From contig DASZRG010000036.1 of the NCBI GenBank assembly GCA_035549295.1, positions 13,324-77,323 on the forward strand: DNA of 64,000 nt, written 5' to 3'. The stretch comes from Patescibacteria group bacterium (GTDB taxonomy: Bacteria; Patescibacteriota; Microgenomatia; Levybacterales; GWA1-39-11). The translations under genes and the position numbers were made by a program. The notes under the pieces were generated by a model that was not told the origin of the DNA, made no database searches, and saw only the letters and a list, made by a program, of their open reading frames with translations. Positions 12,005-61,714 of this stretch are shown here, piece by piece; the stretch's first letter is position 1; every line of letters begins with the position of its first letter.

Positions 12005-12075
12005 TGTCATTCTGAACGTAGTGAAGAATCTTACTTGCCTAAACCCAATATCCTTCGTTCCACTCAGGATGACAT
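12005..12075. repeat. Degenerate family-1 hairpin repeat with TGTCATTCTGAACG / CACTCAGGATGACA inverted ends, between the ugd start and the rmlD-like stop
   Basis: Its ends are 10/14 inverted-complementary and it shares the GTCATTCTGAAC terminus. Confidence 0.6.
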
Positions 12076-12095
12076 TTTCAACCATAATATTATTC

Positions 12096-13025
12096 TCATT
12101 GTTTGATCTTTTTCAAGGCTTCAAAAAAATCGGTCATTTGAAAGCCGAGAGAGACTAGTTTATCATTTTTCATACTTACATTAAAGGGGCGGGCAGCACG
12201 ACCTTTATATAGTTTACCTCGCGTGGTCAATTCAATTTTTGTTTCTGGAATATTATACTCACGAGCTAAAGCGACTCCGATATCTCTTGGTGAGATAAAG
12301 TTATTTCCAACCAAATTAATAATTCCCGAAGTATCTTTGTTTATTAAAAAATCCAAACCATAAGCAATATCATCAATAAATGTTGGCGTAATTGTTTGAT
12401 CTGATACTAGCTCAACGATTTCTTTTGTTCTGAGAAGTTCAACTAAAGTCCAAATCAAATCCCGCTTCAGTGGACTTTTATAGCCAAAGGGGTAAGCTAT
12501 ACGAACTACTAAGTCATGCTCACCCAAAGTTTTTTCGCCCCATAATTTTGTCTGGCCATACCAATCAACTGGAGTTGGAATATCCTCCTCAGAATATGGA
12601 CTTTCTTTTTGTCCGTCAAAAATAAAATCGGTCGAAACATAAATTATTTTTCTGTCATTTTCAGCAACCCAGTCTGATAGGTTTTTCGTACCAACGACAT
12701 TTATTCCAAATGCAGAACTCGAATTTTTCCAGGCCTCCTTGTTTAAGTTTTCAAAATCTATATCTTTTCCTTCAAGCAATTTTGCTTTTTTAAGCTTCTT
12801 TAAATCATTTTCTCTATCATCTTCACATGCATCTACATTCGTCTTGGCTGCAAGATGAACAATAATATCAGGATTTTTATCTGACAAAAATTTGTTTGTT
12901 TTTTTTGCGTCAGTAATATCAATACCGTAAGAAGAAGATAGTGGGATTATCTCGTATTTGCTTTTGAGTAAATCAAAAAAACGCGACCCAACAAGTCCTG
13001 TCGCACCGGTCAGTACTATTTTCAT
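12096..13025 (-). CDS. RmlD-like dTDP-4-dehydro-6-deoxyhexose reductase
   Basis: MKIVLTGATGLVGS and YGQTK (YxxxK) match the RmlD substrate-binding-family layout. It carries a ~30-aa acidic insertion. Confidence 0.55.
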   Translation of the reverse strand: MKIVLTGATGLVGSRFFDLLKSKYEIIPLSSSYGIDITDAKKTNKFLSDKNPDIIVHLAAKTNVDACEDDRENDLKKLKKAKLLEGKDIDFENLNKEAWKNSSSAFGINVVGTKNLSDWVAENDRKIIYVSTDFIFDGQKESPYSEEDIPTPVDWYGQTKLWGEKTLGEHDLVVRIAYPFGYKSPLKRDLIWTLVELLRTKEIVELVSDQTITPTFIDDIAYGLDFLINKDTSGIINLVGNNFISPRDIGVALAREYNIPETKIELTTRGKLYKGRAARPFNVSMKNDKLVSLGFQMTDFFEALKKIKQ

Positions 13026-13085
13026 AAATTAACATACTACATGTGACATTTAACATGTGACCAAATCTCGGACAATTGTCAAATG

Positions 13086-14096
13086 TCAAATGTTTTTATA
13101 TTGTCGTTCATAATATTTCTGGTAATCGCCATTCTTAATATCCTTCCACCATTTTTCATTATTCTTGTACCAATCGACAGTCCTCTCAAGCCACTCATCA
13201 AAGCTATGCTGTGGTTCCCAGCCTAATTCATTTTTTATTTTTGACCAATCGACTGCGTACCTTCTGTCATGACCAGGCCTATCCTTAACATATTCAATAT
13301 TGTCTTCAGACTTTCCTAAAAGTTTTATTATTTTTTTTGCAACTTCAATATTTGGCATATCTTCTGTAAGTCCACCGACAACATAAGTCTCACCGATTTT
13401 TCCGCCTTCTAAAACTTTTTCTATCGCTCGAACATGATCATCCACATACAACCAATCACGAACATATAATCCATCCCCATAAACCGGAATTTTTTTTCCT
13501 TCCAGAAGATTGGTTATGGCAAGAGGAATAATTTTTTCTGGAAATTGATAAGGGCCGAAGTTATTGGAACAATTAGTAATAGTTATTGGAAGTTGGTATG
13601 TGTGATAATAAGCTCTTACTATATGGTCTGAACCGGCTTTACTGGCCGAATATGGACTTCTGGGATCATAAGGTGTTCGTTCACTGAATTTACCCGAATC
13701 AAGCGGAAGAGCTCCAAATACCTCATCGGTTGAGATGTGATGGAAGCGTTTGACGCCAACTTTTTGAGCCGCATCAAGAAGAATTTGCGTCCCTACCACG
13801 TTAGTTGTAAGAAATGGTGCGGGATCATCAATAGACCTATCGACATGAGACTCCGCTGCAAAATGCACGACAGTATCAATACCTTCCATTGCGGAAACTA
13901 CTTGATCGGGAGACGTTATATCCCCGTGAATAAATTTATAGCTTGGATTATTTTCGACAGAGAATAAATTTTCAAGATTCCCCGCGTAAGTAAGCTTATC
14001 GAAGTTTACTACAGTATCATCTGGATGATTTTTTATCCAGTAAAGTATGAAATTACTACCTATAAAACCCGCCCCACCAGTTACAAGTATCTTCAT
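13086..14096 (-). CDS. rmlB: dTDP-glucose 4,6-dehydratase
   Basis: MKILVTGGAGFIGSNF, HFAAESHVDRS and YSASKA are classic RmlB motifs. Confidence 0.9.
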   Translation of the reverse strand: MKILVTGGAGFIGSNFILYWIKNHPDDTVVNFDKLTYAGNLENLFSVENNPSYKFIHGDITSPDQVVSAMEGIDTVVHFAAESHVDRSIDDPAPFLTTNVVGTQILLDAAQKVGVKRFHHISTDEVFGALPLDSGKFSERTPYDPRSPYSASKAGSDHIVRAYYHTYQLPITITNCSNNFGPYQFPEKIIPLAITNLLEGKKIPVYGDGLYVRDWLYVDDHVRAIEKVLEGGKIGETYVVGGLTEDMPNIEVAKKIIKLLGKSEDNIEYVKDRPGHDRRYAVDWSKIKNELGWEPQHSFDEWLERTVDWYKNNEKWWKDIKNGDYQKYYERQYKNI

Positions 14097-14113
14097 AATT
14101 AATATCCAAAAAT

Positions 14114-14141
14114 AGAAATTAGAAATTAGAAATTAGAAATT
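14114..14141. repeat. Microsatellite (AGAAATT)x4
   Basis: Seen directly at 14114-14141 between the rmlB start and the Nudix stop. Confidence 0.8.
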
Positions 14142-14152
14142 TCATTTCAAGA

Positions 14153-14623
14153 TTATCCTATTATAGGCAATTGGAATGGCTGTTTCAAATACTCGAAGTA
14201 TTTAAGGATTGTTTCTCGATGGTCAAATGCGAACTCTTCATCGATTGGCAGTTCGGCTTCTGTAAACCATTTAATTTCAGACACTTCGTGATTTAGAGTG
14301 GGCTCACCACCTATTACTTTACAAACATAAAGAAAGTCTACATTTTGCCTATCTTCTTTTGGCCGCTCAGGATTATCATTTACTCGAAACAAAAAATCAA
14401 TCTTACCTTCGTAACCTGTCTCCTCTTTTAGCTCGCGAAGAGTTCCTTCTTGAGTATTTTCATCTCGATCCAAAAAACCACCAGGAATTGAATATTTTCC
14501 AAATCGATGTTCAACTGCACGCTTTACAAGAAGAATTTGATTTTGATCGTTTACAACGATTGAGCCAACAGTTACATGGCGAAGATTCGCGGGGGTATCG
14601 TTTTCGAATTTACAAGAGATCAT
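14153..14623 (-). CDS. NUDIX hydrolase
   Basis: The Nudix box GGFLDRDENTQEGTLRELKEETGY is present. Its position in the sugar-nucleotide operon suggests a nucleotide-sugar pyrophosphatase. Confidence 0.7.
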   Translation of the reverse strand: MISCKFENDTPANLRHVTVGSIVVNDQNQILLVKRAVEHRFGKYSIPGGFLDRDENTQEGTLRELKEETGYEGKIDFLFRVNDNPERPKEDRQNVDFLYVCKVIGGEPTLNHEVSEIKWFTEAELPIDEEFAFDHRETILKYFEYLKQPFQLPIIG

Positions 14624-15347
14624 TGGTCATTTCACCAGATTTTACTTTTTCAGCAACTAAATTATTAACTCTCAAAAGACTATCTATCGTCCCTGCATCC
14701 TCCCACATTCCCTCAATAACATTCACGTCAAGATCTCCGCTTTCAAGATATTTGTTATGAATATCAACTATCTCTATTTCGCCTCGAGCAGAAGGATTAA
14801 GACTTTTCGCGTAGCTTATAACCTTGTTGTCAAAAATGTAAAAACCAACGACAGCATAATCGCTCTTTGGATGCTCTGGTTTTTCAACGATTGAAATAAC
14901 CTTCATATTTTCATCAAATTCGACGACTCCCGAGCGCTCTGGATCTGGAACTTTTTTTGCAAAAATTCTCCCTCCCGATTTAAACGATGAAACGCTCTCC
15001 GTGAAATCGTGCTCGAATATATTGTCCCCCAAAATCATCGTAACACTGTCATTTCCAATAAAATTCTCACCAATTATAAAAGCGTCGGCCAGACCTCTTG
15101 CTTCAGGTTGAACTTCATAGGTAAAATTTAAACCCCATTCATTCCCCGAACCAAGAAGATTAAGGAAATGCCCTGAGTATTCAGGCGCAACAATAATTAA
15201 GATATCCTTAATTCCGGCTTTGGCCAGAGTATTGATCGGGTAGTAAATCATTGGCTTGTTGTAAACAGGAAGAAGTTGTTTTGAGGTAATCTTAGTCAAT
15301 GGACGCAATCTCGTAGCTTTACCACCAGCAAGTATAATTCCCTTCAT
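14610..15347 (-). CDS. rmlA: Glucose-1-phosphate thymidylyltransferase
   Basis: MKGIILAGGKATRLRPLT. The start was moved to the internal Met at 15347, because the upstream ORF extension lacks homology and the small membrane ORF ends at 15349. Confidence 0.85.
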   Translation of the reverse strand: MKGIILAGGKATRLRPLTKITSKQLLPVYNKPMIYYPINTLAKAGIKDILIIVAPEYSGHFLNLLGSGNEWGLNFTYEVQPEARGLADAFIIGENFIGNDSVTMILGDNIFEHDFTESVSSFKSGGRIFAKKVPDPERSGVVEFDENMKVISIVEKPEHPKSDYAVVGFYIFDNKVISYAKSLNPSARGEIEIVDIHNKYLESGDLDVNVIEGMWEDAGTIDSLLRVNNLVAEKVKSGEMTNDLL

Positions 15348-15348
15348 A

Positions 15349-16554: not shown

Positions 16555-16599
16555 GTAGTAAAGTATCAAAGGTATCAAAAGTATCAGAGGTATCACGAG
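16555..16599. repeat. Tandem 9-bp repeat array, (A/G)GTATCA(A/G)AG x4
   Basis: AGTATCAAAGGTATCAAAAGTATCAGAGGTATCACGAG lies in the promoter region of the CAP-domain gene. A near-identical array is at 31021-31058. Confidence 0.8.
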
Positions 16600-16717
16600 C
16601 TAATCTCAATCGTTTAACGCTATAAGGTAAAAAAGTCTGTATCGGTTAAGTTACACGCTTAACGTAACCGAGTAAACGACCCGGGCAGCGTATCTGAAAA
16701 ACTACTTTCGATGGAGA

Positions 16718-16750
16718 TTTCCTAGTATCTAATATCTAGTCTCTAGTTTC
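16718..16750. promoter_or_regulatory. CTAG-rich conserved ~33-bp motif (reverse complement of the copy at 8457-8492)
   Basis: TTTCCTAGTATCTAATATCTAGTCTCTAGTTTC is the reverse complement of GAAACTAGAGACTAGATATTAGATACTAGGAAA at 8457. Confidence 0.7.
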
Positions 16751-16757
16751 TCGCATG

Positions 16758-21887: not shown

Positions 21888-21952
21888 TTGAGATTAACAT
21901 GTGACATTTGACATCTGACCCCGATATTATCGGGGTTAATTGTCAATTGTAA

Positions 21953-23259: not shown

Positions 23260-23370
23260 AAACTCATTATTATAAGATTAAATTTTGCAAAATCAATCTA
23301 AAAGGCGAGATTGCTTCTATGCACTTACCTAAGTGGAACTTAGCTTGTTGCTCGTAATAATGAAATATTT

Positions 23371-23467
23371 GTCACTGCGAGCCCGAAGGGCGTGGCAGGC
23401 TCGCAGGCGAGATTGCTTCGTTTCACTGCACTTCGCTTCGCTCGTTTGTTCACTCGCAATGACAAGG
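23371..23467. repeat. Hairpin repeat of family 2 (GTCA[C/T]TGCGAG...CTCGCAATGAC termini)
   Basis: TGTCACTGCGAGCC...GGCTCGCAGGCGAGATTGCTTCG...CACTCGCAATGACAAGG. Its ends are inverted repeats, and it shares GAGATTGCTTC with the copies at 33922, 34236 and 50804. Confidence 0.75.
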
Positions 23468-23517
23468 ATTCTTAGATTACTTTTTCGAATTTGGTCTTGT
23501 CGTAAAAGTTGGAATTC

Positions 23518-23652
23518 GTCATTCTGAACCCCGATCCAATCGGGGAACCTTGTTTCAGAATCTCATACTTCGAGGTCCTGAATAACGAGCAATTTGTCAT
23601 GCTGAATTTATTTCAGCATCTCGTTGAGGTCCTGAAACAAGTTCAGGACGAC
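23518..23652. repeat. Composite hairpin repeat of family 1 (modules M1-M3), flanked by 32-bp imperfect direct repeats at 23481-23512 and 23669-23700
   Basis: GTCATTCTGAACCCCGATCCAATCGGGGAACCTTGTTTCAGAATCTC... is identical over ~58 nt to 33204-33261. The modules are xxCTGAA...TTCAGxx hairpins. Confidence 0.85.
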
Positions 23653-24748: not shown

Positions 24749-25005
24749 TTGAATGAAATTATTTGAAAGCCGTATTTTTTGATATCCTCCGGTTTCCAAA
24801 AAGGCATATCTTTTATTTTTCCAACGTACGTAACTTTCTTGACAACCTCACGGCCTGTATATTCATTTTTATCCTCATCCCATTCTTTTAAGATCAGAGT
24901 ATCGCCCTCACAACACTCAAAATCAGCAAGACGAAGATCATACGTTTTCTTACCTGACTTTATGAGTTCAAAATATTTCTTCCAAACCTTTTTCTCAATT
25001 CTCAT
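24745..25005 (-). CDS. DUF3850/ASCH-like small protein
   Basis: KVWKKYFELIKSGKKTYDLRLADF...GDTLILKEWDEDKNEYTGREVVKKVTYV matches the DUF3850 pattern. Confidence 0.55.
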   Translation of the reverse strand: MRIEKKVWKKYFELIKSGKKTYDLRLADFECCEGDTLILKEWDEDKNEYTGREVVKKVTYVGKIKDMPFWKPEDIKKYGFQIISFK

Positions 25006-25006
25006 A

Positions 25007-25042
25007 TTCTAGTCTCTAATATCTAGTATCTAGTTACTAGCT
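25007..25042. promoter_or_regulatory. CTAG-rich conserved motif copy, overlapping the last codons of prfB and abutting the DUF3850 start
   Basis: ATTCTAGTCTCTAATATCTAGTATCTAGTTACTAGC is related to the copies at 8457, 16718, 49325 and 53429. Confidence 0.65.
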
Positions 25043-26034: not shown

Positions 26035-26368
26035 TTCAAATTGATTTTAACAGAAAAGATGGAATACGCATACTTTTGTTCAGTCAAAATTAACAAAACC
26101 AGGTTCTTTTCTGCCGAAAAAAGAACCAAAAGCTCTCACTCCAGTTTTGCTTCATGCTTTCGAGTTTCACTCACTCGTCGGGTGATTTCACCCCCTCCTC
26201 GATCCAAGTCGTTGCTTGGCCGAGGAATCCCCCTGACTTCGTTCGTTCAACTCTCAAGAATTCAGCAAAAGGGAGTGATCGTGTCGCTAAAAGAAAATTT
26301 TTCTCATACTACTTGCAATGTTTTCACACTTCTGGAATACTATTATTTATATATAGCGTTTTGCGCTT

Positions 26369-30999: not shown

Positions 31000-31020
31000 C
31001 TGAAATATCCCCGAGAGAAA

Positions 31021-31058
31021 AGTATCAAAGGTATCAAAAGTATCAAGAGTATCAAAGG
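31021..31058. repeat. Tandem 9-bp repeat array (second locus), AGTATCAAAGGTATCAAAAGTATCAAGAGTATCAAAGG
   Basis: Seen directly. It lies ~60 nt upstream of the ion-channel gene and matches the array at 16555-16599. Confidence 0.8.
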
Positions 31059-31116
31059 CTAATTTCTTTGTGTAAGATTGACTTGATTGGTCGTTTTCAT
31101 CAATAATTAAACTAAT

Positions 31117-33196: not shown

Positions 33197-33203
33197 TAAT
33201 TTC

Positions 33204-33320
33204 GTCATTCTGAACCCCGATCCAATCGGGGAACCTTGTTTCAGAATCTCATACTTCGAGGTCCTGAAACAAGTTCAGGACGACAATTGGAAATAGTCAT
33301 GCTGAATTTATTTCAGCATC
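33204..33320. repeat. Hairpin repeat of family 1 (modules M1-M2-M3)
   Basis: GTCATTCTGAACCCCGATCCAATCGGGGAACCTTGTTTCAGAATCTC + GTCCTGAAACAAGTTCAGGACGAC + GTCATGCTGAATTTATTTCAGCATC. Near-identical to 23518-23575. Confidence 0.85.
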
Positions 33321-33326
33321 TTTAGT

Positions 33327-33892: not shown

Positions 33893-33932
33893 CCTCGTCA
33901 TTGCGAGGGTTTGAAAAACCCGAAGCAATCTC
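33893..33932. repeat. Family-2 hairpin repeat, left inverted copy bracketing the GIY-YIG gene
   Basis: CCTCGTCATTGCGAGGGTTTGAAAAACCCGAAGCAATCTC. Its reverse-complement partner is at 34236-34280. Confidence 0.8.
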
Positions 33933-33944
33933 TATAATAAATTC

Positions 33945-34237
33945 GTGAATTCAAAACAATACTATGTATATATTTTGACGAATAAACTAAATACGGTTTT
34001 ATATACTGGTATAACAAACGACTTAATTAAGAGAGTTTATGAACACAAAAATAAATTAGTTTCGGGATTTACTGAAAGATATAATGTTAACAAGCTCGTT
34101 TACTATGAAATCGCCGAGGACGCATAGGAGCAATAAAACGAGAGAAACAAATCAAAGGTGGTTCAAGGGGTAAGAAAAACGATTTGATTACAAAATTTAA
34201 TCCCGATTGGAAAGATTTATATGATGACCTTGCATGA
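33945..34237 (+). pseudogene. GIY-YIG nuclease family (UPF0213/YhbQ-like, ~97 aa), interrupted by a frameshift near 34122-34129
   Basis: Frame A reads MNSKQYYVYILTNKLNTVLYTGITNDLIKRVYEHK...YYEIAEDA*. In the -1 frame it continues GAIKREKQIKGGSRGKKNDLITKFNPDWKDLYDDLA*, which matches the conserved C-terminal half of this family. Confidence 0.6.
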
Positions 34238-34280
34238 GATTGCTTCGTCAGTCGCAAGCTCCTTCCTCGCAATGACAAAG
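34236..34280. repeat. Family-2 hairpin repeat, right inverted copy (GAGATTGCTTCG...CCTCGCAATGACAAAG)
   Basis: It is the reverse complement of the termini of the copy at 33893-33932. It starts at the GIY-YIG stop and ends 8 nt before the mazG-like stop. Confidence 0.8.
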
Positions 34281-36542: not shown

Positions 36543-36630
36543 CGTCGTCCTGATACTCGCTTCAGGACCTCGACGAGATGCTGAAACACGTGAAAGCTGC
36601 TGCTTCCAGTGCAAGCAAGTTCAGCATGAC
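36543..36630. repeat. Hairpin repeat of family 1, inverted orientation (M2 then M3 with an insertion)
   Basis: GTCGTCCTGATACTCGCTTCAGGACCTCGAC + GAGATGCTGAAACACG...GTTCAGCATGAC. Confidence 0.75.
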
Positions 36631-37289: not shown

Positions 37290-37470
37290 GAATGTATCCA
37301 AATGGTTAGCCCGCCTTGCCGGCGAGGCAGGTCTGAATGATCCAAATTCTAATTTGAAATTATGTGTCAATTTTGAAACCCAATCTATACAAACTTATAA
37401 GCATTCGGGTTATTCGGATTGCAAATCTGAATAATTTAGCCTGTCATTCGGATACATTTGTGTTAATATT
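37290..37470. repeat. Hairpin repeat cluster related to families 2 and 3, bounded by imperfect inverted ends (GAATGTATCC...GGATACATTTG)
   Basis: Its GGTTATTCGGATTGCAAATCTGAATAA stem-loop shares TTCGGGTTATTCGGA with 53648-53662. GCCTTGCCGGCGAGGCAGG resembles the core at 23392-23412. Confidence 0.6.
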
Positions 37471-49324: not shown

Positions 49325-49358
49325 TAGTGATTAGAAACTAGATATTAGTGACTAGGAG
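49325..49358. promoter_or_regulatory. CTAG-rich conserved motif copy upstream of the SDR gene
   Basis: TAGTGATTAGAAACTAGATATTAGTGACTAGGAGAAA. Confidence 0.6.
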
Positions 49359-50674: not shown

Positions 50675-53425
50675 TTATGGAATTATAGGGTAGTGGCATT
50701 TCTTCCATTTTTTACCAGAACCACAAGGACAGGGGTCGTTGCGGCCGAGTTTTCTGGCGGAGCCAGATCCAGCTTCGCTGGATTTTTCCTTTGAATCGTT
50801 GCTGAGATTGCTTTGTCGCTTCGCTCCTCGCAATGACGAGGGTTTTTTTTCTTCTCCTACCTCTGATTCGGGGGTGTTGACTGATACGTTTTGGCGGACT
50901 TCGACTTGTGGAACAATTTCTGCGAGATTTACTCTAAATGCGCGGTGAGATATCTCATCGTCGATTGAATCTACAAGTCGTTCAAACATATTGAACGATT
51001 CATTTTTATACTCGATAAGCGGATCACGCTGTCCATAACCACGAAGTCCTATACCAGTCCTGAGATCTTCCATAGCTGTTAGGTGGTCCATCCAGAGATT
51101 ATCTATAGTTGATAGGGATATTGCTTTATAAACTTGGGCCAAATGTTCTCGACTAAACTGCTTCTCCCAAGTATCGACAAGCTGTTTGGCAAGACCAACC
51201 AAGAAATCTGTTACCTCCTCAGCAGAATGGAATTGCTCTGATTGTTCATATAGATGTTTTCTAGAGTGCTCATCGAATGGAATGATGTTTGCAAACTCTT
51301 CGATCATATTTTTTCTACCATCTTCGACCATTTCAGAGTACAAATTCATTTGGACAATACTTGCAATTGATGCCTCGACCTTACTAAGAGTTGAGTCAAT
51401 AATATCTTCTTTGTTGGCAACTATCGCGCGGCGATTATCGTAAATTATTTCTCTTTGTTTGTTGAGAACATCGTCGTAGTCAAGAAGATTTTTTCGAATT
51501 TCAAAATTGTATCCTTCGACTTTTACTTGAGCCTGTTCAATAACTCTTGAAACGAGACCATGAGCCAAAGGTTGGTCTTCTGGGAAATTAAATCGCGTCA
51601 TAAGACCTGAAATCTGATCTCCTCCAAAAACGCGCATGAGATCATCTTCAAGAGATACAATAAACACAGATCGTCCCGGATCTCCTTGACGACCTGCACG
51701 CCCACGAAGCTGATTGTCGATCCTTCGAGACTCGTGCTTTTCAGTACCAATAACACATAGTCCGCCCTTTTTAAGAACTTCATCGTGCTCTTTTTCCCAT
51801 TTTTTCATGTGTTCGGCAAATCTTTTCTCGCCAGCTTTTCCTGAATACTCGACATCGAATTTGGATGGAGGTTGACCACCAAGAATAATATCAACTCCAC
51901 GACCTGCCATGTTGGTCGCAACTGTGACGGCATTGACTCGGCCCGCTTCACGAATAATAGCAGCTTCTTTTACATGGTTTTTCGCATTTAGGACTTCGTG
52001 TTTTATTCCGCGACGCTTTAGAGCTTCCGAAATAGTTTCGTTCTTATCAATTGATGTTGTACCAACAAGAACTGGTTGACCTTTTTTGTGAGCCTCCTCA
52101 ATCTGGTCAACAACGGCTTTTACTTTTGCATGATTTGTTTTGTAAATTTGGTCTCCCTGATCGTCACGAACCATCTCGCGGTGTGTCGGAATAACTATGA
52201 CGTCGAGTTTGTAAATTTTCTGGAACTCCTCTGCCTCTGTTACAGCAGTTCCTGTCATACCACCAAGTTTTTCATACATTCTGAAGTAATTCTGCAGAGA
52301 GACTGTTGCGAGAGTTTTGGACTCTTGTTGAATCGGTACATTTTCTTTTGCTTCAATCGCTTGGTGAAGACCCTCAGACAGTCTTCTACCTTCAAGAAGA
52401 CGTCCTGTAAATTCATCAACTAAAATAACTTGATTATCACGAACTATATAGTCTCGGTCTTTGTGAAAAAGCGTGTTTGCTTTGAGCGCTGCCTCGATGT
52501 GATAGACTGTGTCAAAATCTTTTTCATAAATATCTTTTACACCATAAAGCTTTTCAACTTTTTCAATTCCTTGATCTGTAAGATGAGCCGTACGGGACTT
52601 CTCATCTATTTTATAATCGGTCTCGGACGTCAAGCGATCGACCATATTGGCATATTCGTAATATTTTTGAGATGGCGTTGCATCAGGCATGGAGATAATA
52701 TGAGGAGTACGTGCCTCATCGATAAGAACTGAGTCCACCTCATCGATAACCGCGAAGTAATGATCGGTCTGCACCATCTGAGACTCTTCAGAAACCATAT
52801 TGTCGCGAAGATAATCAAATCCGAATTCTGAATTTATCCCATAAACAATATTGGCTTGATAGGCTTCACGACGCGATATCGGCTTCAAGTGGACGAGTCG
52901 ATAGTCAGATGCTTGATTGTCAGTAAATGTAGGATCGTAAAGAAATGAAGTCTCTGAAATAATAGATGAAACTGTCATTCCCAAGAAACTAAAAACAGCA
53001 CCCATCCATCCAGCATCACGACGAGCGAGATAATCGTTAACAGTAACGAGATGAACCGTGGCACCAGTCAAAGCATTGAGATACAGTGCAGGAACTGCTG
53101 ACAGCGTCTTTCCTTCTCCCGTCTTTTGCTCCGCAACTGCACCTCTTGCAAGAGCTGTTGCCGCCATGAGCTGAACATCATATGGCCTCATACCAACGCT
53201 TCTATGAGCTGCCTCACGAACGAGAGCAAATGCTTCTGGTAAAATTAGGAATATGCTTTCGCCTTCAGCAATTCTCTTTTTGAATTCTTCAGTTTTTTTG
53301 GGGAAGTCAGAATCTTTTAGTTTCTTTGTTTTTTCCTCCAGCGCATTTATTTGATCAACAATAGGAGCAAGTTTTTTTACTTCGCGGTCATTTGAGTCAA
53401 ATAGTTTTGTGAGACTTCCAAACAT
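50675..53425 (-). CDS. secA: Preprotein translocase ATPase SecA
   Basis: 916 aa with DEAD motor motifs (MATGEGKT-like GEGKTL, DEVDS), a C-terminal zinc finger CPCGSGKKWKKCH, and a repeat-derived insertion in the C-terminal linker. Confidence 0.95.
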   Translation of the reverse strand: MFGSLTKLFDSNDREVKKLAPIVDQINALEEKTKKLKDSDFPKKTEEFKKRIAEGESIFLILPEAFALVREAAHRSVGMRPYDVQLMAATALARGAVAEQKTGEGKTLSAVPALYLNALTGATVHLVTVNDYLARRDAGWMGAVFSFLGMTVSSIISETSFLYDPTFTDNQASDYRLVHLKPISRREAYQANIVYGINSEFGFDYLRDNMVSEESQMVQTDHYFAVIDEVDSVLIDEARTPHIISMPDATPSQKYYEYANMVDRLTSETDYKIDEKSRTAHLTDQGIEKVEKLYGVKDIYEKDFDTVYHIEAALKANTLFHKDRDYIVRDNQVILVDEFTGRLLEGRRLSEGLHQAIEAKENVPIQQESKTLATVSLQNYFRMYEKLGGMTGTAVTEAEEFQKIYKLDVIVIPTHREMVRDDQGDQIYKTNHAKVKAVVDQIEEAHKKGQPVLVGTTSIDKNETISEALKRRGIKHEVLNAKNHVKEAAIIREAGRVNAVTVATNMAGRGVDIILGGQPPSKFDVEYSGKAGEKRFAEHMKKWEKEHDEVLKKGGLCVIGTEKHESRRIDNQLRGRAGRQGDPGRSVFIVSLEDDLMRVFGGDQISGLMTRFNFPEDQPLAHGLVSRVIEQAQVKVEGYNFEIRKNLLDYDDVLNKQREIIYDNRRAIVANKEDIIDSTLSKVEASIASIVQMNLYSEMVEDGRKNMIEEFANIIPFDEHSRKHLYEQSEQFHSAEEVTDFLVGLAKQLVDTWEKQFSREHLAQVYKAISLSTIDNLWMDHLTAMEDLRTGIGLRGYGQRDPLIEYKNESFNMFERLVDSIDDEISHRAFRVNLAEIVPQVEVRQNVSVNTPESEVGEEKKPSSLRGAKRQSNLSNDSKEKSSEAGSGSARKLGRNDPCPCGSGKKWKKCHYPIIP
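50804..50847. repeat. Family-2 hairpin repeat embedded in-frame in the secA C-terminal linker
   Basis: GAGATTGCTTTGTCGCTTCGCTCCTCGCAATGACGAGGG encodes PSSLRGAKRQSNL. An adjacent ATCCAGCTTCGCTGGAT hairpin sits at 50772-50788. Confidence 0.7.
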
Positions 53426-53428: not shown

Positions 53429-53466
53429 TTAGTGACTAGATACTAGATATTAGTAACTAGGAATTG
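53429..53466. promoter_or_regulatory. CTAG-rich conserved motif copy, 3 nt upstream of the secA start codon
   Basis: TTAGTGACTAGATACTAGATATTAGTAACTAGGAATTG. Confidence 0.65.
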
Positions 53467-53536: not shown

Positions 53537-53790
53537 GTGTCATTCTGAACCCCCATTTAATCGGGGGAACCTTGATTCAGAATCTCTAATCGAGACCCCG
53601 GATCCCGTGAGCTTCGCTCATGGTAAACAAGTCTGGAGTGACAAGTTTCTATTCGGGTTATTCGGAGTAAACATTCGGATAAATTCGCGTCTAAATGAAT
53701 TCGCCCCCCACTAATTACTCAGTGAGGGGCAGAATACCATTTGATCAATTGGTATTCCGAATTAAATCGGAATCCAACCGTAAACTAGTT
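53537..53790. repeat. String of family-1 and family-3 hairpin modules in the 650-bp secA-serS spacer
   Basis: It contains GTCATTCTGAACCCCCATTTAATCGGGGGAACCTTGATTCAGAATCTC, GAGACCCCGGA...TCTGGAGTGACAAG, TTCGGGTTATTCGGA, CCCCCCACTAATTACTCAGTGAGGGG, GAATACCATTTGATCAATTGGTATTC, and ATTCCGAATTAAATCGGAAT. Confidence 0.8.
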
Positions 53791-54075
53791 AAATTCTAGC
53801 TTATTTCTTCTTCTTCTTTTTTTTAGCAGCCATTATAAACACCTCCCGTCGCTTCTGAAAAAAATTCAGAAATTAGGATAATTTAATCGTGAATAATTAG
53901 TATCGATTTGTCAAGAAAAATACGTTGCTTCAAAAGTAATAATTTGGATTGATATATCAGTCAAAATCAAAAAATAAAATATGCATTTTTGTAGGCACAA
54001 AAATGGAAAAATAATTTAGATTTTTTTGGCCGCAATTAGGAAACATTTGTATTGTTTTAATGCGGCACAAAGGAT

Positions 54076-55969: not shown

Positions 55970-56596
55970 ATGATTAAGGCTGTTATTTTCGACGTTGACG
56001 GTGTGTTAATTGATTCTTTTGAAGCAAATTTAAGATTTTTCGAAAACTTAATGGTAAAAGCGGGCTATCCAAAACCTAAGCGTGAGGAATTTCATGAGTT
56101 ATTCCATCTGAGTATGATGGATACAATAAAAGCGCTAACGAAATTAAATTCGGAAGAAGAATTACGAAAAATTTGGAATATGGGAAAAAGTAGAGAGGTC
56201 AACTACCCCGTCGATCTATTAGCTACGCCTGAGGGAATGGAAAAAACAATACTTGATCTCAATAAAAATTATACGCTTGGAATTGTATCCAACAGAGTCA
56301 AAGAAAGTGTTTATGAGGCACCAAGGCTTGCAAAACTAAAAGATCATTTTAAATCAACAATTACATATGAGGATACGATAAATCATAAACCAAACCCTGA
56401 ACCACTTTTACTTGCAGCGAGCGAACTAGATATTGAACCACGAAGTATCGTTTATGTTGGAGATGCGGAAAATGATCTGATAGCAGGAAAAGCAGCTGGA
56501 ATGAAAGTCATAGCATATTCACCCAACAAATATAAAAACACGGACGCTCAAGCTTTGTTATTCACCGATCTTCCTGCAATAATTAGAACATTATGA
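55970..56596 (+). CDS. HAD-superfamily hydrolase (beta-phosphoglucomutase/phosphatase-like)
   Basis: IKAVIFDVDGVLIDS (motif I), VSNR, and GDAENDLIAGKAAG (motif IV). Confidence 0.75.
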   Translation: MIKAVIFDVDGVLIDSFEANLRFFENLMVKAGYPKPKREEFHELFHLSMMDTIKALTKLNSEEELRKIWNMGKSREVNYPVDLLATPEGMEKTILDLNKNYTLGIVSNRVKESVYEAPRLAKLKDHFKSTITYEDTINHKPNPEPLLLAASELDIEPRSIVYVGDAENDLIAGKAAGMKVIAYSPNKYKNTDAQALLFTDLPAIIRTL

Positions 56597-57537
56597 TAAA
56601 CATTCAAATACCAAATTGGCAAGAACATGAACTACTCGACACCGGAAACGGCCGAAAGCTTGAGCGTTTTGGAAAATATATTCTAAATCGCATTGAACCA
56701 CAAGCAACGTGGCATCAAACTCTGAGCGAGTCAGAATGGCACAAAGCAGATGCTGTTTTTCGAAAAGCTAGTGACCGCGGTGGAAATTGGGAACTAAAAA
56801 AACAAATCCCAGGGAAGTGGACAATGTCATATGAAAGTCTGAAACTTGAACTTCGACTTACACCATTTGGACATGTGGGAGTTTTTCCGGACCAGTCAAA
56901 TCAGTGGGAATGGATTTCAAATAAAATCAAACAAAGAAGTCATCCTGAACCCCGATTGAATCGGGGGAACCTTGTTTCAGGATCTCAAGCTGAGACCCCG
57001 GAACAAGTCCGGGGTGACAAAGCTGTAAATGTTTTGAGTTTGTTTACTTATACTGGTGCTTCGACTCTAGAGGCGGCGGCGGCGGGCGCTCATGTAACTC
57101 ATGTTGATGCATCAAAACCAGCTATAACTTGGGCACGAGAAAACCAGAGAATATCAGGACTAACTGACAAACCTATTCGCTGGATCCCTGAGGATGCTTT
57201 AAAGTTTGTAAAACGAGAAGTAAGACGAAATTCACGCTACGACGCGATCATAATGGACCCTCCGAAATTTGGACGAGGAACTCAAGGAGAAGTTTGGAAA
57301 TTTGAAGAATCATTTCCAGAACTTATAGACTATTGTCGACAGATACTTTCAGATAACCCACTGTTCATACTTACGACTGCATATGCGATCCCTGTCTCGT
57401 CAATTTCTCTTGCAAATATGATCTCAGATGCAACTCGTAAGCTAAAAGGGAATATTGAGTATGGAGAACTAGCACTTAAACAAACATCAAACGAAAAACT
57501 TTTACCAACCGCCATTTTCTGTAAATGGGAGCGTTAA
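56593..57537 (+). CDS. SAM-dependent methyltransferase of the RlmI/YccW type, carrying an in-frame hairpin-repeat insertion
   Basis: VLSLFTYTGASTLEAA is motif I-like. IIMDPPKFGRG is the DPPxF motif. It makes an ATGA overlap with the upstream HAD gene. Confidence 0.5.
   Translation: MINIQIPNWQEHELLDTGNGRKLERFGKYILNRIEPQATWHQTLSESEWHKADAVFRKASDRGGNWELKKQIPGKWTMSYESLKLELRLTPFGHVGVFPDQSNQWEWISNKIKQRSHPEPRLNRGNLVSGSQAETPEQVRGDKAVNVLSLFTYTGASTLEAAAAGAHVTHVDASKPAITWARENQRISGLTDKPIRWIPEDALKFVKREVRRNSRYDAIIMDPPKFGRGTQGEVWKFEESFPELIDYCRQILSDNPLFILTTAYAIPVSSISLANMISDATRKLKGNIEYGELALKQTSNEKLLPTAIFCKWER
56941..57024. repeat. Family-1 hairpin repeat (M1 + GACCCCGGAACAAGTCCGGGGTGAC hairpin) inserted in-frame within the methyltransferase CDS
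   Basis: CATCCTGAACCCCGATTGAATCGGGGGAACCTTGTTTCAGGATCTC... is 84 nt with no stop codon and encodes HPEPRLNRGNLVSGSQAETPEQVRGDKA. It is near-identical in reverse complement to 61664-61714. Confidence 0.8.
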
Positions 57538-57538
57538 T

Positions 57539-59719
57539 TTAGGAGGCTCTTACTACACCAAATTCTTCAACTTTACCGCCGCAATATTTCACAATAATAT
57601 CGCATGTTTCTTGCAAAACTTGAGCGACCTTTTCGGGTGTTACATCATAAACTCCATCAACATTTATATATAAATTTTTTGTATCAAGTTGCACTGCGGT
57701 TCTCACTGAGTCTCGATAATTAAAGTCCATATTTATTCCTCCTATTTGATCAAAATAAGCTATCTCACCATTTTTGTAATAAACTTCTGACTCATCTCCG
57801 AGTAAATGAATTTTATCTTGATCAGTCGAAAAACGAAGAGCCGTTGGGAATTCAATCTTATCCAAATCAAAAGCACCAACTGAAATTTTGTTTTTTATAA
57901 CTACTAGATTGTAAGCATCAACACATGTGTTAACCTTGTATAAATCTTTTTTTGCAATAATTCTCCTAAGTAACGCCTCAGGACTTGGACGACGAGAGTG
58001 CCAATCAATTCCAGTTTCTTTATAGAGTTTTCTGTAGCTTAATATTTCAGGGGACGCTGAGATATCATCGTTAGTCATATTCCTAAGGCTTGAGACAGCC
58101 TCTTTAATCTCTCCATCTAGCTGATCGTTCCCCTTCTCAATTGAAACACCACGAATTATTGCTACGCCGCATGAAACAGACGCGAATTTTTCAGAAATAG
58201 CTTTATCAATAAAAAAAATGTTTGGATTATTAAATACTTTGACTTTAACTTCCTTTTTATTTTCGACTTTTGTTGCGGGCTTTAGAGTCGGGAAAATAAC
58301 AACTTCTTTTATTGCCCAGGTATTAGTAAGGAACATAGTAAGACGATCTATGCCAACACCAATTCCACCAAAGGGTGGCATTCCAAACTCCATTGCGGCC
58401 AAAAAATCTTCATCGACGTGCTGCGCTTCGTCTTTATTTACACGTGCAGCTGATGAATCTTTTGTCAGCCTCTCGCGCTGGATAACTGGATCTGTTAATT
58501 CGCTCCATCCGTCATAAATTTCTTTTCCACCAATGTAAGCTTCGAACCTCTCGACCCAGCCAGGTTTATTTCTGTGATTTTTAGACAGAGGGCTTACGTC
58601 CTCCGGGTAATCTATAATATATGTAGGCTCATCTAAAGTTTGCGGAATTAAATGCTCAAAAATTAGGTATATAAGTTGTCCTTTTGTCTCTCCGCCAACA
58701 ATTTGTGCATCGTGACAATTTTCTTTTGCGTATTTAAGGAGTGTTTCGGCACTTTCTTTTTCAACATCAAGTCCCAGCTTATCGAGCAGTATTTGAGACA
58801 TCTCGATTCTAGGCCATTTTTTACCAACATCGATATCTCGATCTCCAACTTTTATTACAGTTGTTCCATATATCTTTTTTGCTAAATGTTTGATAAGACC
58901 CTCTGCAACATCCATGACTCTATGATAATCGGCATACGCCTCGTACCACTCAATCATTGTAAATTCGGGAAAGTGGGTGTGATCTATGCCTTCATTCCTA
59001 AAGTCTTTTGCAATTTCGTAAACCTTCTCGTATCCTCCAACAATCAACCTCTTAAGATACAATTCGTCAGCAATTCGCAAGTACATTTCCTGGCCAAATG
59101 CATTAACATGCGTTTTAAAAGGTCTCGCATTTGCCCCGCCGTATAAAGGCTGCAATGTTGGAGTCTCAACTTCCCAAAAACCTACACTATCTAGATATTC
59201 ACGTGTTCCGCTAACAATTTTGGTTCTAATATTGAATCTCTCGCGAACTTCAGGATTTAGGAGCAGATCTAAATATCTTTGACGAAATCTCGTCTCAACG
59301 TCTTTTACGCCAAACCACTCACTTGGAAGGGTCGCGATGGATTTAGTAAGTAGTGTATAAGACGTAGGTGCGATTGAAATTTCACCTGCAATTGTTTTGA
59401 CAATTTCACCCTCAACTCCAATAAAATCGCCAATGTCGAGAAGTTTTACATTTTTAAAATCATCACCAAGTAATTTTTTCTGGAAAAAAACTTGTACGCT
59501 ACCTGTCTCATCTTTAAGATCTGCAAAAGCAATATTACCGTGCTCGCGAAATGAATAAAGTCTTCCAGCAGTTTTTACAACTTTTCCAAGATCCGATTCA
59601 GACGCTTCTTTGATGGTATTTTTTTTATCATATGAGGCAGCATAAGGATTCCATCCTAGTTCTCGAATTTTCTCAAGCTTTTCAAGTTTTATTTTTTTAT
59701 ATTGATTATCGTCTTGCAT
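57539..59719 (-). CDS. lysS: Lysyl-tRNA synthetase (class II) with a ~230-aa C-terminal extension
   Basis: The N-terminal ~495 aa has an OB anticodon-binding domain and class II motifs (FRNEGID, GGIGVGIDRL). The extra C-terminal domain (FIDKAISEKF...VRAS) may be B3/B4-like. Confidence 0.8.
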   Translation of the reverse strand: MQDDNQYKKIKLEKLEKIRELGWNPYAASYDKKNTIKEASESDLGKVVKTAGRLYSFREHGNIAFADLKDETGSVQVFFQKKLLGDDFKNVKLLDIGDFIGVEGEIVKTIAGEISIAPTSYTLLTKSIATLPSEWFGVKDVETRFRQRYLDLLLNPEVRERFNIRTKIVSGTREYLDSVGFWEVETPTLQPLYGGANARPFKTHVNAFGQEMYLRIADELYLKRLIVGGYEKVYEIAKDFRNEGIDHTHFPEFTMIEWYEAYADYHRVMDVAEGLIKHLAKKIYGTTVIKVGDRDIDVGKKWPRIEMSQILLDKLGLDVEKESAETLLKYAKENCHDAQIVGGETKGQLIYLIFEHLIPQTLDEPTYIIDYPEDVSPLSKNHRNKPGWVERFEAYIGGKEIYDGWSELTDPVIQRERLTKDSSAARVNKDEAQHVDEDFLAAMEFGMPPFGGIGVGIDRLTMFLTNTWAIKEVVIFPTLKPATKVENKKEVKVKVFNNPNIFFIDKAISEKFASVSCGVAIIRGVSIEKGNDQLDGEIKEAVSSLRNMTNDDISASPEILSYRKLYKETGIDWHSRRPSPEALLRRIIAKKDLYKVNTCVDAYNLVVIKNKISVGAFDLDKIEFPTALRFSTDQDKIHLLGDESEVYYKNGEIAYFDQIGGINMDFNYRDSVRTAVQLDTKNLYINVDGVYDVTPEKVAQVLQETCDIIVKYCGGKVEEFGVVRAS

Positions 59720-59734
59720 TTTTTTATTTTAACC

Positions 59735-60808
59735 TTAAACCGTGCTTAATGAAAGAATTAAATTTGAAATCTTTACCATATCGGATATGCTAAATTCCTC
59801 ACGAGTCGTATGAGGATTTTTTACTCCATTCCCAAGATTTAAAACTTTTATACCTTTTTTAATAAATACATTTGCATCAGAACATCCACCTGACCACCGA
59901 AGGACCGGTTTTATTTTAATTTTTTCCATCTTTAATTCTGTATCTTTAATGAATGGATAACTTTTAGAATATAAGTATCCTTCGTTTTCGCGGAGATTTT
60001 TCCAATTTATTTTAGCGCCATATTTGACCGCTGCATCTCTGAAAGTTTTTTCGATCTTATCAACATGTTTTCGCTGCTTTTCACCAGAAAAGCTTCTGAC
60101 TTCACCAGAAATTATCATTTTCTCAGGAACTGTATTTATTGCATCTCCCGCCTTAACTAGCCCTATATTTACGTAACTTTCACTGTCAACTTTACCAAGC
60201 TTTATATGTTTTAACGCCTCATAAAAAACGGATACTACATTTATTCCATCTTCGGGTATCGAAGCGTGAGAGGCTTTTCCAAGAATCTCCAAGTCGAACC
60301 TATCATAGAATGGTGAAGCTGTAATAATAGTTCCAATAGGAAGCGAGACATCAAATAGATATCCATTTTTTGATTTGAGCTTTTTATAATCAAGACCTTC
60401 GACACCATAACTTCCACTCTCTTCATACGAGGTAAAAACTATTTCAAGTGGCCTACTCTTTTGCCCCGACTCAATGATGCATTCTACTGCTTCGAGAATT
60501 GCGGCAAGCGCCATCTTGTTGTCGCCGGCAATTATCGTAGTTCCATCCGATCTTATTTTTCCATTTTTTATTATTGGCTTAATAGATCGACCCGGCTCGA
60601 CAGTATCCATATGAGCAGATATCAATAGTGGCTCACCACTTCCAGGTAGATATCCTACGACATTATTGAATTTGTCTGTAGTATAAGAAACTTTCATTTT
60701 CTTGAGAAGATTTACTATATGTATCGATATATCTTTTTCAAAACCAGTTGGACTATCAATTTTTGCAATTTCTATAAATGTTCTAACTAATCTATCTTGA
60801 TTAACCAT
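59735..60808 (-). CDS. M20-family metallopeptidase (PepT/DapE/ArgE-like)
   Basis: ISAHMDTV, GDNKMALA and SYEESGSYG are the metal-binding and catalytic motifs of the M20 family. Confidence 0.6.
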   Translation of the reverse strand: MVNQDRLVRTFIEIAKIDSPTGFEKDISIHIVNLLKKMKVSYTTDKFNNVVGYLPGSGEPLLISAHMDTVEPGRSIKPIIKNGKIRSDGTTIIAGDNKMALAAILEAVECIIESGQKSRPLEIVFTSYEESGSYGVEGLDYKKLKSKNGYLFDVSLPIGTIITASPFYDRFDLEILGKASHASIPEDGINVVSVFYEALKHIKLGKVDSESYVNIGLVKAGDAINTVPEKMIISGEVRSFSGEKQRKHVDKIEKTFRDAAVKYGAKINWKNLRENEGYLYSKSYPFIKDTELKMEKIKIKPVLRWSGGCSDANVFIKKGIKVLNLGNGVKNPHTTREEFSISDMVKISNLILSLSTV

Positions 60809-61547
60809 AATATCCTACTCCTTTTAGTCTGTTTACTAAAGCTGCCTGAGGGCTGTCTAAACCTTCTGAGAATTTTAACATAAGATCATCATCTATTTGA
60901 CTCGCAAGATTTTTGCTTGATACAAACATTGTACATGGGATTTTTGTTTTATCATAAGACGATTCTGCAATTTCATCTAGACTTATTAGCTGAGACCCCG
61001 CAACTCTTTGAGGACAATCCTTAGTCAGCTGGAAACCACATCCAAAGTCAGGAGTACAAACACAAGTAAATGGCGCTATCATTGGGAATTCGGTATGTTC
61101 TCCAATATGAAAATCCAGGCCTAGTTCTTCTGTTTTACGAAGCGCTTTTAATACTGCAATTGTCTTTGTTGTTCCCAAAACTAAAAGCCTACCCTGACTC
61201 ATTTCATCTTTAAAACTTTCAAGTAAACCATTTTGTAACTTATTATAGAGTCCTTTTCCTCTATGCTCCGCCGCAACTATTGCTGTACCCAATTCCCAAA
61301 TACTGGGAAAATCCGGAATTCCAATAGCTTGCTTTAACTCTTCATCAAGAAGTGGCGTAAACCTTACAAGTCCCACTGTTTCGTCTCCAAGATTAAGAGC
61401 CACAGCAAGACCCTGGTCAAAACTTCTCTCAAGAGATGCTAGGTCTGGATGAAGCAAATTAGATTCTGCGCTAATAATAGTCTGTATATGTGCAAAATTC
61501 GGCTGCATGTCTGTTTCACTTTTTTTTAACAATCTATAGTTTTCCAT
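60801..61547 (-). CDS. GNAT-like acetyltransferase domain protein with a Cys-rich C-terminal region
   Basis: GTAIVAAEHRGKGLYNKL resembles GNAT motif A. The C-terminus has CVCTPDFGCG...C. Confidence 0.4.
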   Translation of the reverse strand: MENYRLLKKSETDMQPNFAHIQTIISAESNLLHPDLASLERSFDQGLAVALNLGDETVGLVRFTPLLDEELKQAIGIPDFPSIWELGTAIVAAEHRGKGLYNKLQNGLLESFKDEMSQGRLLVLGTTKTIAVLKALRKTEELGLDFHIGEHTEFPMIAPFTCVCTPDFGCGFQLTKDCPQRVAGSQLISLDEIAESSYDKTKIPCTMFVSSKNLASQIDDDLMLKFSEGLDSPQAALVNRLKGVGYYG

Positions 61548-61550
61548 ATT

Positions 61551-61582
61551 TTTACCACAAAAAAACCCCGCTAAGCGGGGTT
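61551..61582 (-). terminator. Rho-independent terminator downstream of greA
   Basis: CCCCGCTTAGCGGGG with a flanking A-run and T-run. It reads as hairpin + TTTTTTT in the minus-strand sense. Confidence 0.7.
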
Positions 61583-61663
61583 ATATTTTTTCCAACAAAA
61601 AAATAACCCCTTCTACGGAGTCTGCTTCTTTGCTGATTTAGAAATTATTATTACATTCATATT

Positions 61664-61714
61664 GAGATCCTGAAACAAGGTTCCCCCGATTCAATCGGGG
61701 TTCAGGATGGCGAC
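61664..61714. repeat. Family-1 hairpin repeat (M1, inverted orientation), abutting the greA stop
   Basis: GAGATCCTGAAACAAGGTTCCCCCGATTCAATCGGGGTTCAGGATGGCGAC. Confidence 0.85.

Follow-up and report, generated by a model that had tools for sequence, protein, structure and literature searches.

Which element has seeded a small patescibacterial genome with hairpin repeats, and what are these repeats? The question is raised by a stretch of 64,000 nt from a Patescibacteria group bacterium (GTDB Levybacterales, GWA1-39-11; GenBank assembly GCA_035549295.1, contig DASZRG010000036.1, positions 13,324 to 77,323 of the forward strand). The whole stretch is called the window here and is numbered from its first nucleotide. 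A preliminary description made from the sequence alone had listed 13 loci with GTCAT...ATGAC hairpins and had compared them to repetitive extragenic palindromic (REP) sequences or transposable elements of the miniature inverted-repeat type (MITEs), which was right in kind. The decisive feature was missed: a gene for a GIY-YIG protein (Ssn) is bracketed by two of the repeat units at 33897–34276. Therefore the repeats can be assigned to the Ssn/SRM (CGTC-REP) system; they are probably Ssn-related motifs (SRM; NTS-like, or CGTC-tagged REPs), i.e. hairpins which are recognised as single-stranded DNA (ssDNA) by the GIY-YIG nuclease Ssn. Within this recently defined system the window represents a new host group, a metagenome-assembled genome of the Patescibacteria, with divergent stem sequences.

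In Neisseria, close to half of the dRS3 repeats carry the NTS (CGTCATTCCCGCGMAVGCGGGAATCYRG), a longer oriented motif (Chenal et al. 2025, Nat Commun 16:2388, PMC11893778). Its relatives, the SRM, flank and accompany ssnA, which encodes a 94-aa single-domain GIY-YIG protein (CDD cd10448). SsnA binds the motif solely as an ssDNA hairpin, on one strand, and its cut lies a few nucleotides upstream. Cutting depends on the three unpaired bases that precede the palindrome (GTC), binding on the C that follows it. Neisseria SsnA is inactive on an altered stem sequence, and SsnA of N. meningitidis reduces transformation by NTS-bearing DNA. The layout NTS-ssnA-NTS, which resembles an insertion sequence (IS), and the analogy to REP/RAYT systems were pointed out in the same study (PMC11893778). 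An earlier catalogue lists the same repeats under the name CGTC-tagged REPs (Di Nocera et al. 2013, BMC Genomics 14:522, PMC3733652). These have an 8–9 bp stem starting with A-T, a 4–5 nt loop and a 3-nt tail, form inverted dimers, occur occasionally within genes and include dRS3 as well as the Rickettsia repeats RPE-4 and RPE-6; no transposase partner was found (PMC3733652).

A GIY-YIG gene between inverted units

The window has a GC content of 38.6%, and its genes are tightly packed, with only about 5.5 kb of DNA between open reading frames (ORFs). Scans of the 64 kb revealed neither tRNA genes nor Rfam matches. Two inverted units of the TTGC type bracket a GIY-YIG reading frame and form with it a cassette of about 380 bp (Table 1). 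After repair of a 1-nt frameshift at about position 34124, where tblastn also splits the match into two frames, the product has 97 aa and consists of a single GIY-YIG domain (PF01541, E 1.8e-15, residues 5–76). The frameshift is due either to decay into a pseudogene or to an assembly error. The TGA stop codon of ssn overlaps the GAGA of the next unit, and a gene call at this locus is absent from both deposited annotations.

When the window Ssn was compared to a gonococcal genome contained in a plasmid collection, a single match was obtained (46.5% identity, E 3e-21), which is a 94-aa ORF lying amid nine exact NTS copies within 3.3 kb. Aligned to this 94-aa counterpart of SsnA, the window protein is 46% identical over 92 aa, gap-free (E 2e-30), and its residues Y9, Y20 and E67 are conserved and align with the catalytic Y6, Y17 and E64 of SsnA. 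The window Ssn has at least 8,000 relatives, and the best 120 of these among the matches listed are 65–76% identical and include proteins from Cyanobacteria, Nitrospirota and Patescibacteria. No NCBIfam family was found at threshold. Membership in YhbQ/UPF0213 was ruled out, with only a weak PDB match (1zg2, E 0.008). As a side result of this comparison, NZ_CP119140.1 and NZ_CP119142.1 turned out to be 2.17-Mb Neisseria gonorrhoeae chromosomes filed as plasmids in PLSDB, which is a database error.

The repeat unit is an oriented hairpin

Units of the window were catalogued by arm patterns and by an nhmmer profile built from 19 clean, alignable units, while a mismatch-tolerant stem search gave mostly noise. 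Dinucleotide shuffles served as chance baseline for the unit counts (100 shuffles for the GTC-stem-CTC count). The basic unit is an oriented hairpin: two complementary stem arms enclose a loop and are themselves flanked by an unpaired (Y)GTC on the 5′ side and an unpaired CTC tail on the 3′ side. The GTCAT...ATGAC palindrome, which had been taken for the basic element, corresponds to two inverted units with their tails facing each other (e.g. 12006–12074, 36544–36630 and 56939–57018). The stem comprises 8 bp in most window units and 5 bp in the TTGC type, and the loop has 5 nt in five units and 6 to about 45 nt in the others. GTC followed by a perfect stem of at least 8 bp and CTC occurs 10 times in the window, compared to an average of 0.05 per shuffle and never more than 1 in any of the 100. 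Matches to the 5′ arm pattern GTCRYNCYGRA number 12 (0.89 expected), and those to the 3′ arm pattern TYCRGNRYCTC number 13 (1.33 expected). Both 11-nt arms of the TTGC-type stem (GTC-ATTGC...GCAAT-CTC), GTCATTGCGAG and GAAGCAATCTC, are present in four exact copies each.

In the alignment of 19 units, G and C of the GTC show no variation and T occurs in at least 90%; after the stem, C is found in at least 90% of the units and the next T is invariant. Including the preceding base, the tag reads TGTC in 11 units, CGTC in 5 and AGTC in 3. Of 18 units, 15 begin the stem with an A-T pair and 16 have T-A as the second pair. Six stem variants occur in the window (ATTCTGAA, ATGCTGAA, ATCCTGAA, GTCCTGAA, ACCCCGGA and ATTGC). 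Pairing in the stems is preserved by compensatory substitutions, with GTC and C(T)C on either side remaining constant: 96.9% of the stem cells of the window units are paired, four of the six pairs change on both sides (17 cells), and the score was reached by none of 500 shuffles. Pairing fell to 28–42% when the partner columns were slid out of register. When units of the CTGAA type are folded as ssDNA, the 8-bp stem starts directly after the unpaired GTC and ends directly before the unpaired CTC, with energies of −6.8 to −11.6 kcal/mol. Short units and M1 units reach z-scores of −3.5 to −5, the long-loop unit 36575–36630 one of −1.8; the 5-bp TTGC-type unit alone is thermodynamically weak.

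Three separate hairpin modules had been distinguished before. The hairpins are real, but because pairing is kept while the stems vary, the CTGAA and CCCCGGA modules represent one covarying kind of unit, and the CCCCGAT/ATCGGGG module is a hairpin nested within the loop of the M1 unit. The identical inner hairpin was detected in unit loops of Woesebacteria, Daviesbacteria and Dehalococcoidia, and seven of its eight occurrences in 689 kb fall in unit loops (control arm permutations average 0.31). A lone inner hairpin (CCCGAT-ATT-ATCGGG) lies outside any unit at 21920–21934, between two minus-strand genes, and could be a terminator or the remnant of a unit loop.

In total the window contains one unit-ssn-unit cassette and about 20 solo, paired or clustered units. 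Members of the family were confirmed at 11 of the 13 listed loci (those starting at 12005, 23371, 23518, 33204, 33893, 34236, 36543, 50804, 53537, 56941 and 61664). Within the locus 53537–53790 only 53539–53642 belongs to the family, while 53650–53790 gave no match to the profile of 19 units even at E ≤50. The profile was equally silent at 26145–26250 and 37290–37470, even at E ≤50; all three segments contain other repeats. Further units beyond the listed ones were not found in the window by the profile. The clusters at 23518 and 33204, which had been described as reordered, are colinear. Their homology begins 3 nt ahead of GTC, and the 23518 cluster differs from the 33204 cluster in that its middle unit has lost 14 nt and a further unit is present at its end. 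Copies identical over 58 nt had been reported, which was an underestimate: 23515–23582 and 33201–33268 share 100% identity over 68 nt. Together with empty sites in syntenic relatives (see below) these copies bear out the proposed recent spread.

Units accompany ssn across phyla

The flanks of ssn were analysed at 80 genome loci on one-genome-per-species contigs from more than 15 phylum-level groups, and 78 loci were usable. The unit finder required a stem of at least 5 bp, as a cut-off of at least 6 bp misses the common 5-bp TTGC stems. A forward unit ending within 70 nt upstream of ssn was present at 46 of the 78 loci and a reverse unit starting within 70 nt downstream at 48, compared to at most 3 in either case when the search interval was shifted by 1–4 kb. 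Inverted units on both sides were found at 38 loci (at most 1 in shifted intervals). The stem 5-mer matches on both sides at 32 of 43 loci, while random pairing gave 19.8 on average and never more than 27. Thus the gene that travels with the units across phyla is ssn. Ssn proteins with a common stem type are slightly more alike than others (identity 0.616 vs. 0.582), a difference that none of 1000 label permutations reached and to which shared ancestry may contribute. In a member of the Komeilibacteria (locus L007) the M2-type unit of the window lies upstream of ssn. Several ssn gene calls are too long and open with translated units (MSLR..RSNL, CHCEERSDEAIS, VIASEAKQS).

A near-consensus promoter overlaps the unit upstream of the window ssn (33911–33938). 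TTGAAA is located in the loop and is followed after 16 nt by TATAAT (33933–33938), directly after the unit tail and 6 nt ahead of the start codon. A −10-like hexamer between unit tail and gene was observed at 19 of 47 loci, compared to 6.1 in random stretches, a control that is unmatched for intergenic AT content. Judged from these motifs, the arrangement suggests that ssn may be expressed from within the unit, with a short leader or leaderless.

Insertion sites and in-frame units

Relatives with the same gene order have empty sites, and therefore the clusters and the cassette are insertions. Two relatives (L093 and L094; uracil-DNA glycosylase (UDG) 62% identical) keep the order p108-UDG-MazG and are empty at the sites of the 33204 cluster and of the cassette: about 17 nt replace the 130-nt three-unit cluster of the window, and the genes abut where the window carries the 380-nt cassette. 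In the closest relative (L092; UDG 80% identical) an ssn cassette is located on the opposite side of UDG and on the other strand. The order secA-serS-ham1-methyltransferase-lysS-greA is kept in L082/L083 and L084/L085, whose methyltransferases are 74–75% identical to that of the window, and no unit was found in these stretches of 14–21 kb.

Loops of housekeeping proteins tolerate some of the units as in-frame inserts. An 80-nt unit pair (56939–57018) adds 26 aa to an RlmI-like methyltransferase, whose closest homologues are without the insert. In other lineages the same loop carries different unit pairs, a few codons apart; it contains an M3+M2 pair like 36544–36630 in L089, a TTGC pair in L090 and a decayed unit in L091. 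The unit within secA (50804–50837) is read in frame as SSLRGAKRQSNL and is positioned in the linker that joins the SecA_SW domain to the SEC-C motif. About 3–4 kb past the end of the window, on the same contig, tsaD (L087, 4788–5990) harbours two in-frame unit pairs. Each opens with an identical 33-nt unit, GTCATTCCGGGCGCGTGAGCGATCCGGAATCTC, whose stem is very close to that of the Neisseria NTS. TsaD measures 400 aa, compared to 377 aa in the relative L082. No target-site duplication was evident at the insertion sites compared (cassette, clusters and in-frame sites).

Table 1 Repeat units and ssn in the window, with the evidence for each assignment
Feature	Position	Strand	Evidence
Unit, TTCT stem of 5 bp, GA-rich loop, left half of inverted pair	12006–12032	+	5′ arm pattern; profile E 9e-4
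Unit, TCCT stem, degenerate tail ATT, right half of pair	12048–12074	−	Unit alignment and profile
Degenerate TTGC-type unit, exact 3′ arm GAAGCAATCTC, decayed 5′ arm	23307–23363	−	Absent from the earlier list
Rearranged TTGC-type 5′ arm (GTCACTGCGAG) paired with inverted self-copy	23371–23406	+	Arm match
TTGC-type unit, long loop	23409–23463	−	Both arms and profile
M1 unit GTC-ATTCTGAA...TTCAGAAT-CTC, nested CCCCGAT/ATCGGGG hairpin	23518–23564	+	−11.4 kcal/mol, z −4.0; profile
3′ arm of reverse GTCGTCCTGAA unit, 14 nt lost	23572–23582	−	3′ arm pattern and cluster alignment
M2 unit GTC-ATGCTGAA-TTTAT-TTCAGCAT-CTC	23596–23622	+	z −5.0
M3 unit GTC-GTCCTGAA-CTTGT-TTCAGGAC-CTC	23626–23652	−	z −4.1
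M1 unit	33204–33250	+	Within 68-nt identity to 23515–23582
M3 unit	33258–33284	−	Perfect-stem unit search
M2 unit, tail CTT	33296–33322	+	Perfect-stem unit search
TTGC-type unit, left end of ssn cassette	33897–33932	+	Arm matches; folding
ssn, GIY-YIG (pseudogene or assembly error)	33945–34237	+	PF01541; homology to gonococcal SsnA counterpart
TTGC-type unit, right end of ssn cassette	34236–34276	−	Arm matches and profile
M3-type unit, left half of inverted pair	36544–36571	+	Perfect-stem unit search
M2-type unit, 40-nt structured loop, right half of pair	36575–36630	−	Unit search; folding
TTGC-type unit within secA	50804–50837	−	Arm matches; ORF domain scan
M1 unit	53539–53586	+	Profile E 5e-12
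CCCCGGA-type unit, partly decayed, long loop	53592–53642	−	3′ arm pattern; profile E 9e-7
M1 unit within RlmI-like methyltransferase ORF (56593–57537)	56939–56986	+	Unit search; homologue comparison
Unit GTC-ACCCCGGA-CTTGT-TCCGGGGT-CTC, pairs with 56939–56986	56992–57018	−	Pair −23.2 kcal/mol, z −4.7
M1 unit, GCC inserted after GTC; 92% complementary to 56934–56993	61664–61714	−	Repeat search; 3′ arm pattern; profile

Comparison with known repeat systems

Like SRM and NTS, the window units are hairpins with an orientation, in which an unpaired GTC precedes the stem and a C, then Y, follows it. They occur in many, mostly intergenic copies, and inverted units enclose a single-domain GIY-YIG gene of about 95 aa, an association that holds across phyla. 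The window units differ by their AT-rich CTGAA stem variants (ATNCTGAA) and by loops that reach 40 nt and can hold a nested hairpin. Furthermore, the window ssn is frameshifted, and the intragenic share is higher (3 of about 21 window units, i.e. about 14%, vs. 2% in N. meningitidis). Neither Patescibacteria nor Cyanobacteria are mentioned in the text of Chenal et al. 2025, though databases already name homologues there. The units resemble the CGTC-REPs in part: most have a CGTC or TGTC tag and a stem starting with A-T, which comprises 8 bp in the CTGAA types, the short units have a 5-nt loop, and an unpaired tail of 3 nt follows. Inverted dimers predominate in both, intragenic units occur, and no transposase is associated. 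The host phylum lies outside the five reported for CGTC-REPs, and the GIY-YIG partner gene was unknown in 2013.

REP/REPIN-RAYT systems and bacterial interspersed mosaic elements (BIMEs) were reportedly described by Nunvar in 2010, by Bertels and Rainey in 2011 and by Ton-Hoang in 2012. By analogy, the ssn cassette may be seen as a single small gene flanked by hairpins which its product recognises as ssDNA, and it is likewise accompanied by many non-autonomous hairpin dimers and mosaics. In contrast to the HUH/Y1 enzymes, which form a covalent DNA link, the GIY-YIG fold is hydrolytic. The tag is GTC instead of GTAG, and no RAYT was present among the genes examined in about 83 kb of the host contig (called genes of L001, L086, L087 and L170), the stretch searched for both ssn and transposases. 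Ogata et al. are said to have reported in 2000 that Rickettsia palindromic elements are inserted in frame in protein genes. The window units resemble these elements, as in-frame repeats are tolerated in putative surface loops (SecA, TsaD, RlmI-like methyltransferase) of a reduced genome. Unlike the Rickettsia elements, they belong to another lineage and have other unit sequences, the inserts are single units or pairs of 34–80 nt, and one methyltransferase loop was hit independently in several lineages.

Alternative explanations

Most copies had been described as abutting gene 3′ ends, where they might act as terminating or stabilising hairpins. This placement was confirmed for the intergenic clusters, six of seven of which lie within about 21 nt of a stop codon, but not for the three window units inside ORFs. 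Host RNA elements kept for gene expression, either terminators or 3′-end stabilisers, would account for such positions, and the inner hairpin of M1 was indeed flagged as terminator-like. Nevertheless, terminator-like sites are not enriched over shuffles (13 vs. 15.5 expected, and 18 vs. 14.3). Most units are without a T-rich tail as demanded by the terminator scan. Apart from one M2 unit, the scan flagged only the inner hairpin of two M1 copies, and the one at 23529 is on the wrong strand relative to the genes beside it. Units stand in both orientations relative to transcription, and the three window units inside ORFs are translated in frame. Relatives have the same operons without units, an Rfam match is absent, and ordinary terminators do exist in this genome (e.g. 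61564–61582). In view of the missing enrichment, the wrong strand and the two orientations, the data give no support to termination or stabilisation as the reason why the units exist, and we consider such a role improbable. While the intergenic clusters sit near stop codons, none is located in the seven divergent promoter regions of the window; purifying selection on insertions would produce this pattern.

Mobile elements of classical type are still less probable. Mobilisation of REP/REPIN elements by a RAYT, a Y1 enzyme of the IS200/IS605 type, would be in line with short, oriented and tagged hairpins, inverted dimers, BIME-like clusters and mostly extragenic positions, but the tag is (Y)GTC and not GTAG, and the gene bracketed by units across phyla encodes a GIY-YIG protein. 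Neither a Y1 nor any other transposase Pfam family was detected among the called genes of the 83 kb or the extra window ORFs scanned, and Di Nocera et al. 2013 link no transposase to CGTC repeats (PMC3733652). MITEs derived from a DDE-type IS, with GTCAT...ATGAC as terminal inverted repeats and the transposase elsewhere, merit no more credence. A target-site duplication is not visible at the cassette or the clusters, single 27-nt units also stand alone, and the supposed ends are complete hairpins with covarying stems, between which the 97-aa GIY-YIG gene is the sole gene found, although the composites with inverted ends are MITE-sized (e.g. 80 nt at 56939–57018) and identical copies exist. That the family is a chance or compositional product of an AT-rich genome has a negligible probability: other low-complexity intergenic repeats do occur in the window, but the unit counts exceed dinucleotide shuffles 10- to 200-fold, copies are identical over 68 nt and the stems covary.

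Possible mode of spread

If the repeats are Ssn-related motifs, the units would spread as non-autonomous passengers of an Ssn-dependent process on ssDNA, at replication forks or on incoming DNA, in analogy to REPIN and RAYT. An intact ssn paralogue, located elsewhere in the genome or present in the recent past, would have served the CTGAA-type units. The cassette would be, or would have been, the autonomous form, and effects on transcripts or DNA uptake would be secondary.

Several points weigh against the assignment to the Ssn/SRM system. The sole ssn copy in the 83 kb examined is frameshifted and flanked by units of the minority TTGC type and not by the dominant CTGAA type; therefore no cognate nuclease is seen for most of the units. 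As SsnA is sensitive to the stem sequence, it is doubtful that one enzyme serves six stem variants, which imply several nucleases, a relaxed enzyme or fossil families. GIY-YIG enzymes act on DNA by hydrolysis and are not known for strand transfer or rejoining. The tail CTC differs from the tails CCA or CYRG of the described families, and many window loops are far longer than the 4–5 nt of CGTC-REPs. Finally, the published SRM string HGTCWYN(0-2)YYVSBRHN(0-5)WNVSBRGN(0-2)RNCYNB has 0 matches in the window, compared to 0.12 in shuffles. Only GC-rich stems and loops of up to 5 nt can satisfy this string, which was derived from 29 genomes as a search tool and is not a functional definition.

A more far-reaching interpretation is that the unit-ssn-unit cassette of about 380 bp is an autonomous mobile element, the smallest known, which is driven by a hydrolytic GIY-YIG ssDNA nuclease in place of a transposase. 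The solo and paired hairpins would then be MITE-like passengers colonising streamlined Patescibacteria, including loops of essential proteins, and nuclease and stem variants would be co-evolving. We regard this as possible, though rather doubtful. It is compatible with the empty sites and with the different cassette positions in close relatives, and likewise with the repeated hits in one methyltransferase loop and with the homology boundary 3 nt upstream of GTC, beside the published cut site; none of these observations shows Ssn as the mover.

Other intergenic sequences of the window

Low-complexity words rich in CTAG/TAG (TAGTGACTAGATACTAGATATTAGTAACTAGGA, AGTATCAAAGGTATCAAAAGTATCA) are common to the intergenic stretches 8455–8487, 16719–16755, 25004–25041, 49325–49357 and 53430–53462 and also occur at 16557–16607, 31016–31066, about 14120 and about 55320. 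They are found in either orientation, bring stops in several frames on both strands and are unrelated to the hairpin units. Repeats of the form ATTCGGGTTATTCGGA...TCGGAT are common to 37290–37470 and 53651–53688, both upstream of genes, and do not match the unit profile. The former region is bounded by the inverted repeat GAATGTATCC / GGATACATT. These repeats may be operator sites.

The spacer between secA and serS (53700–53840) contains a block that is kept in relatives (L082, 786–1312; L084, 6469–6938). It comprises a GC-rich hairpin (53702–53731), the palindrome ACCATTTGATCAATTGGT and, on the minus strand at about 53835–53800, a Lys-rich mini-ORF (MAAKKKKKKK*) preceded by GGAGGTG, and looks like a conserved small gene or leader. 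An unlisted ORF of 47 aa for a zinc-ribbon protein (DUF5679, E 1.7e-17) was found at 4361–4504 within a 365-nt stretch regarded as intergenic.

Significance

For annotation, it matters that gene calls in metagenomes are lengthened or broken by peptides derived from units (SLRG..KQSNL and the like), and the in-frame units in secA, tsaD and rRNA methyltransferase genes should not be taken for assembly errors. AT-rich variants and those with long loops escape the SRM string, so that the family is undercounted in surveys which rely on it. The question of how CGTC-REP/NTS repeats multiply dates back to 2013, and Chenal et al. only raise an IS-like hypothesis. The patescibacterial lineage offers clean comparative material for this question, with insertions beside empty sites, a cassette found at different positions in close relatives and several stem variants in a small genome. 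The stem variants point to further Ssn specificities and to possible ssDNA tools.

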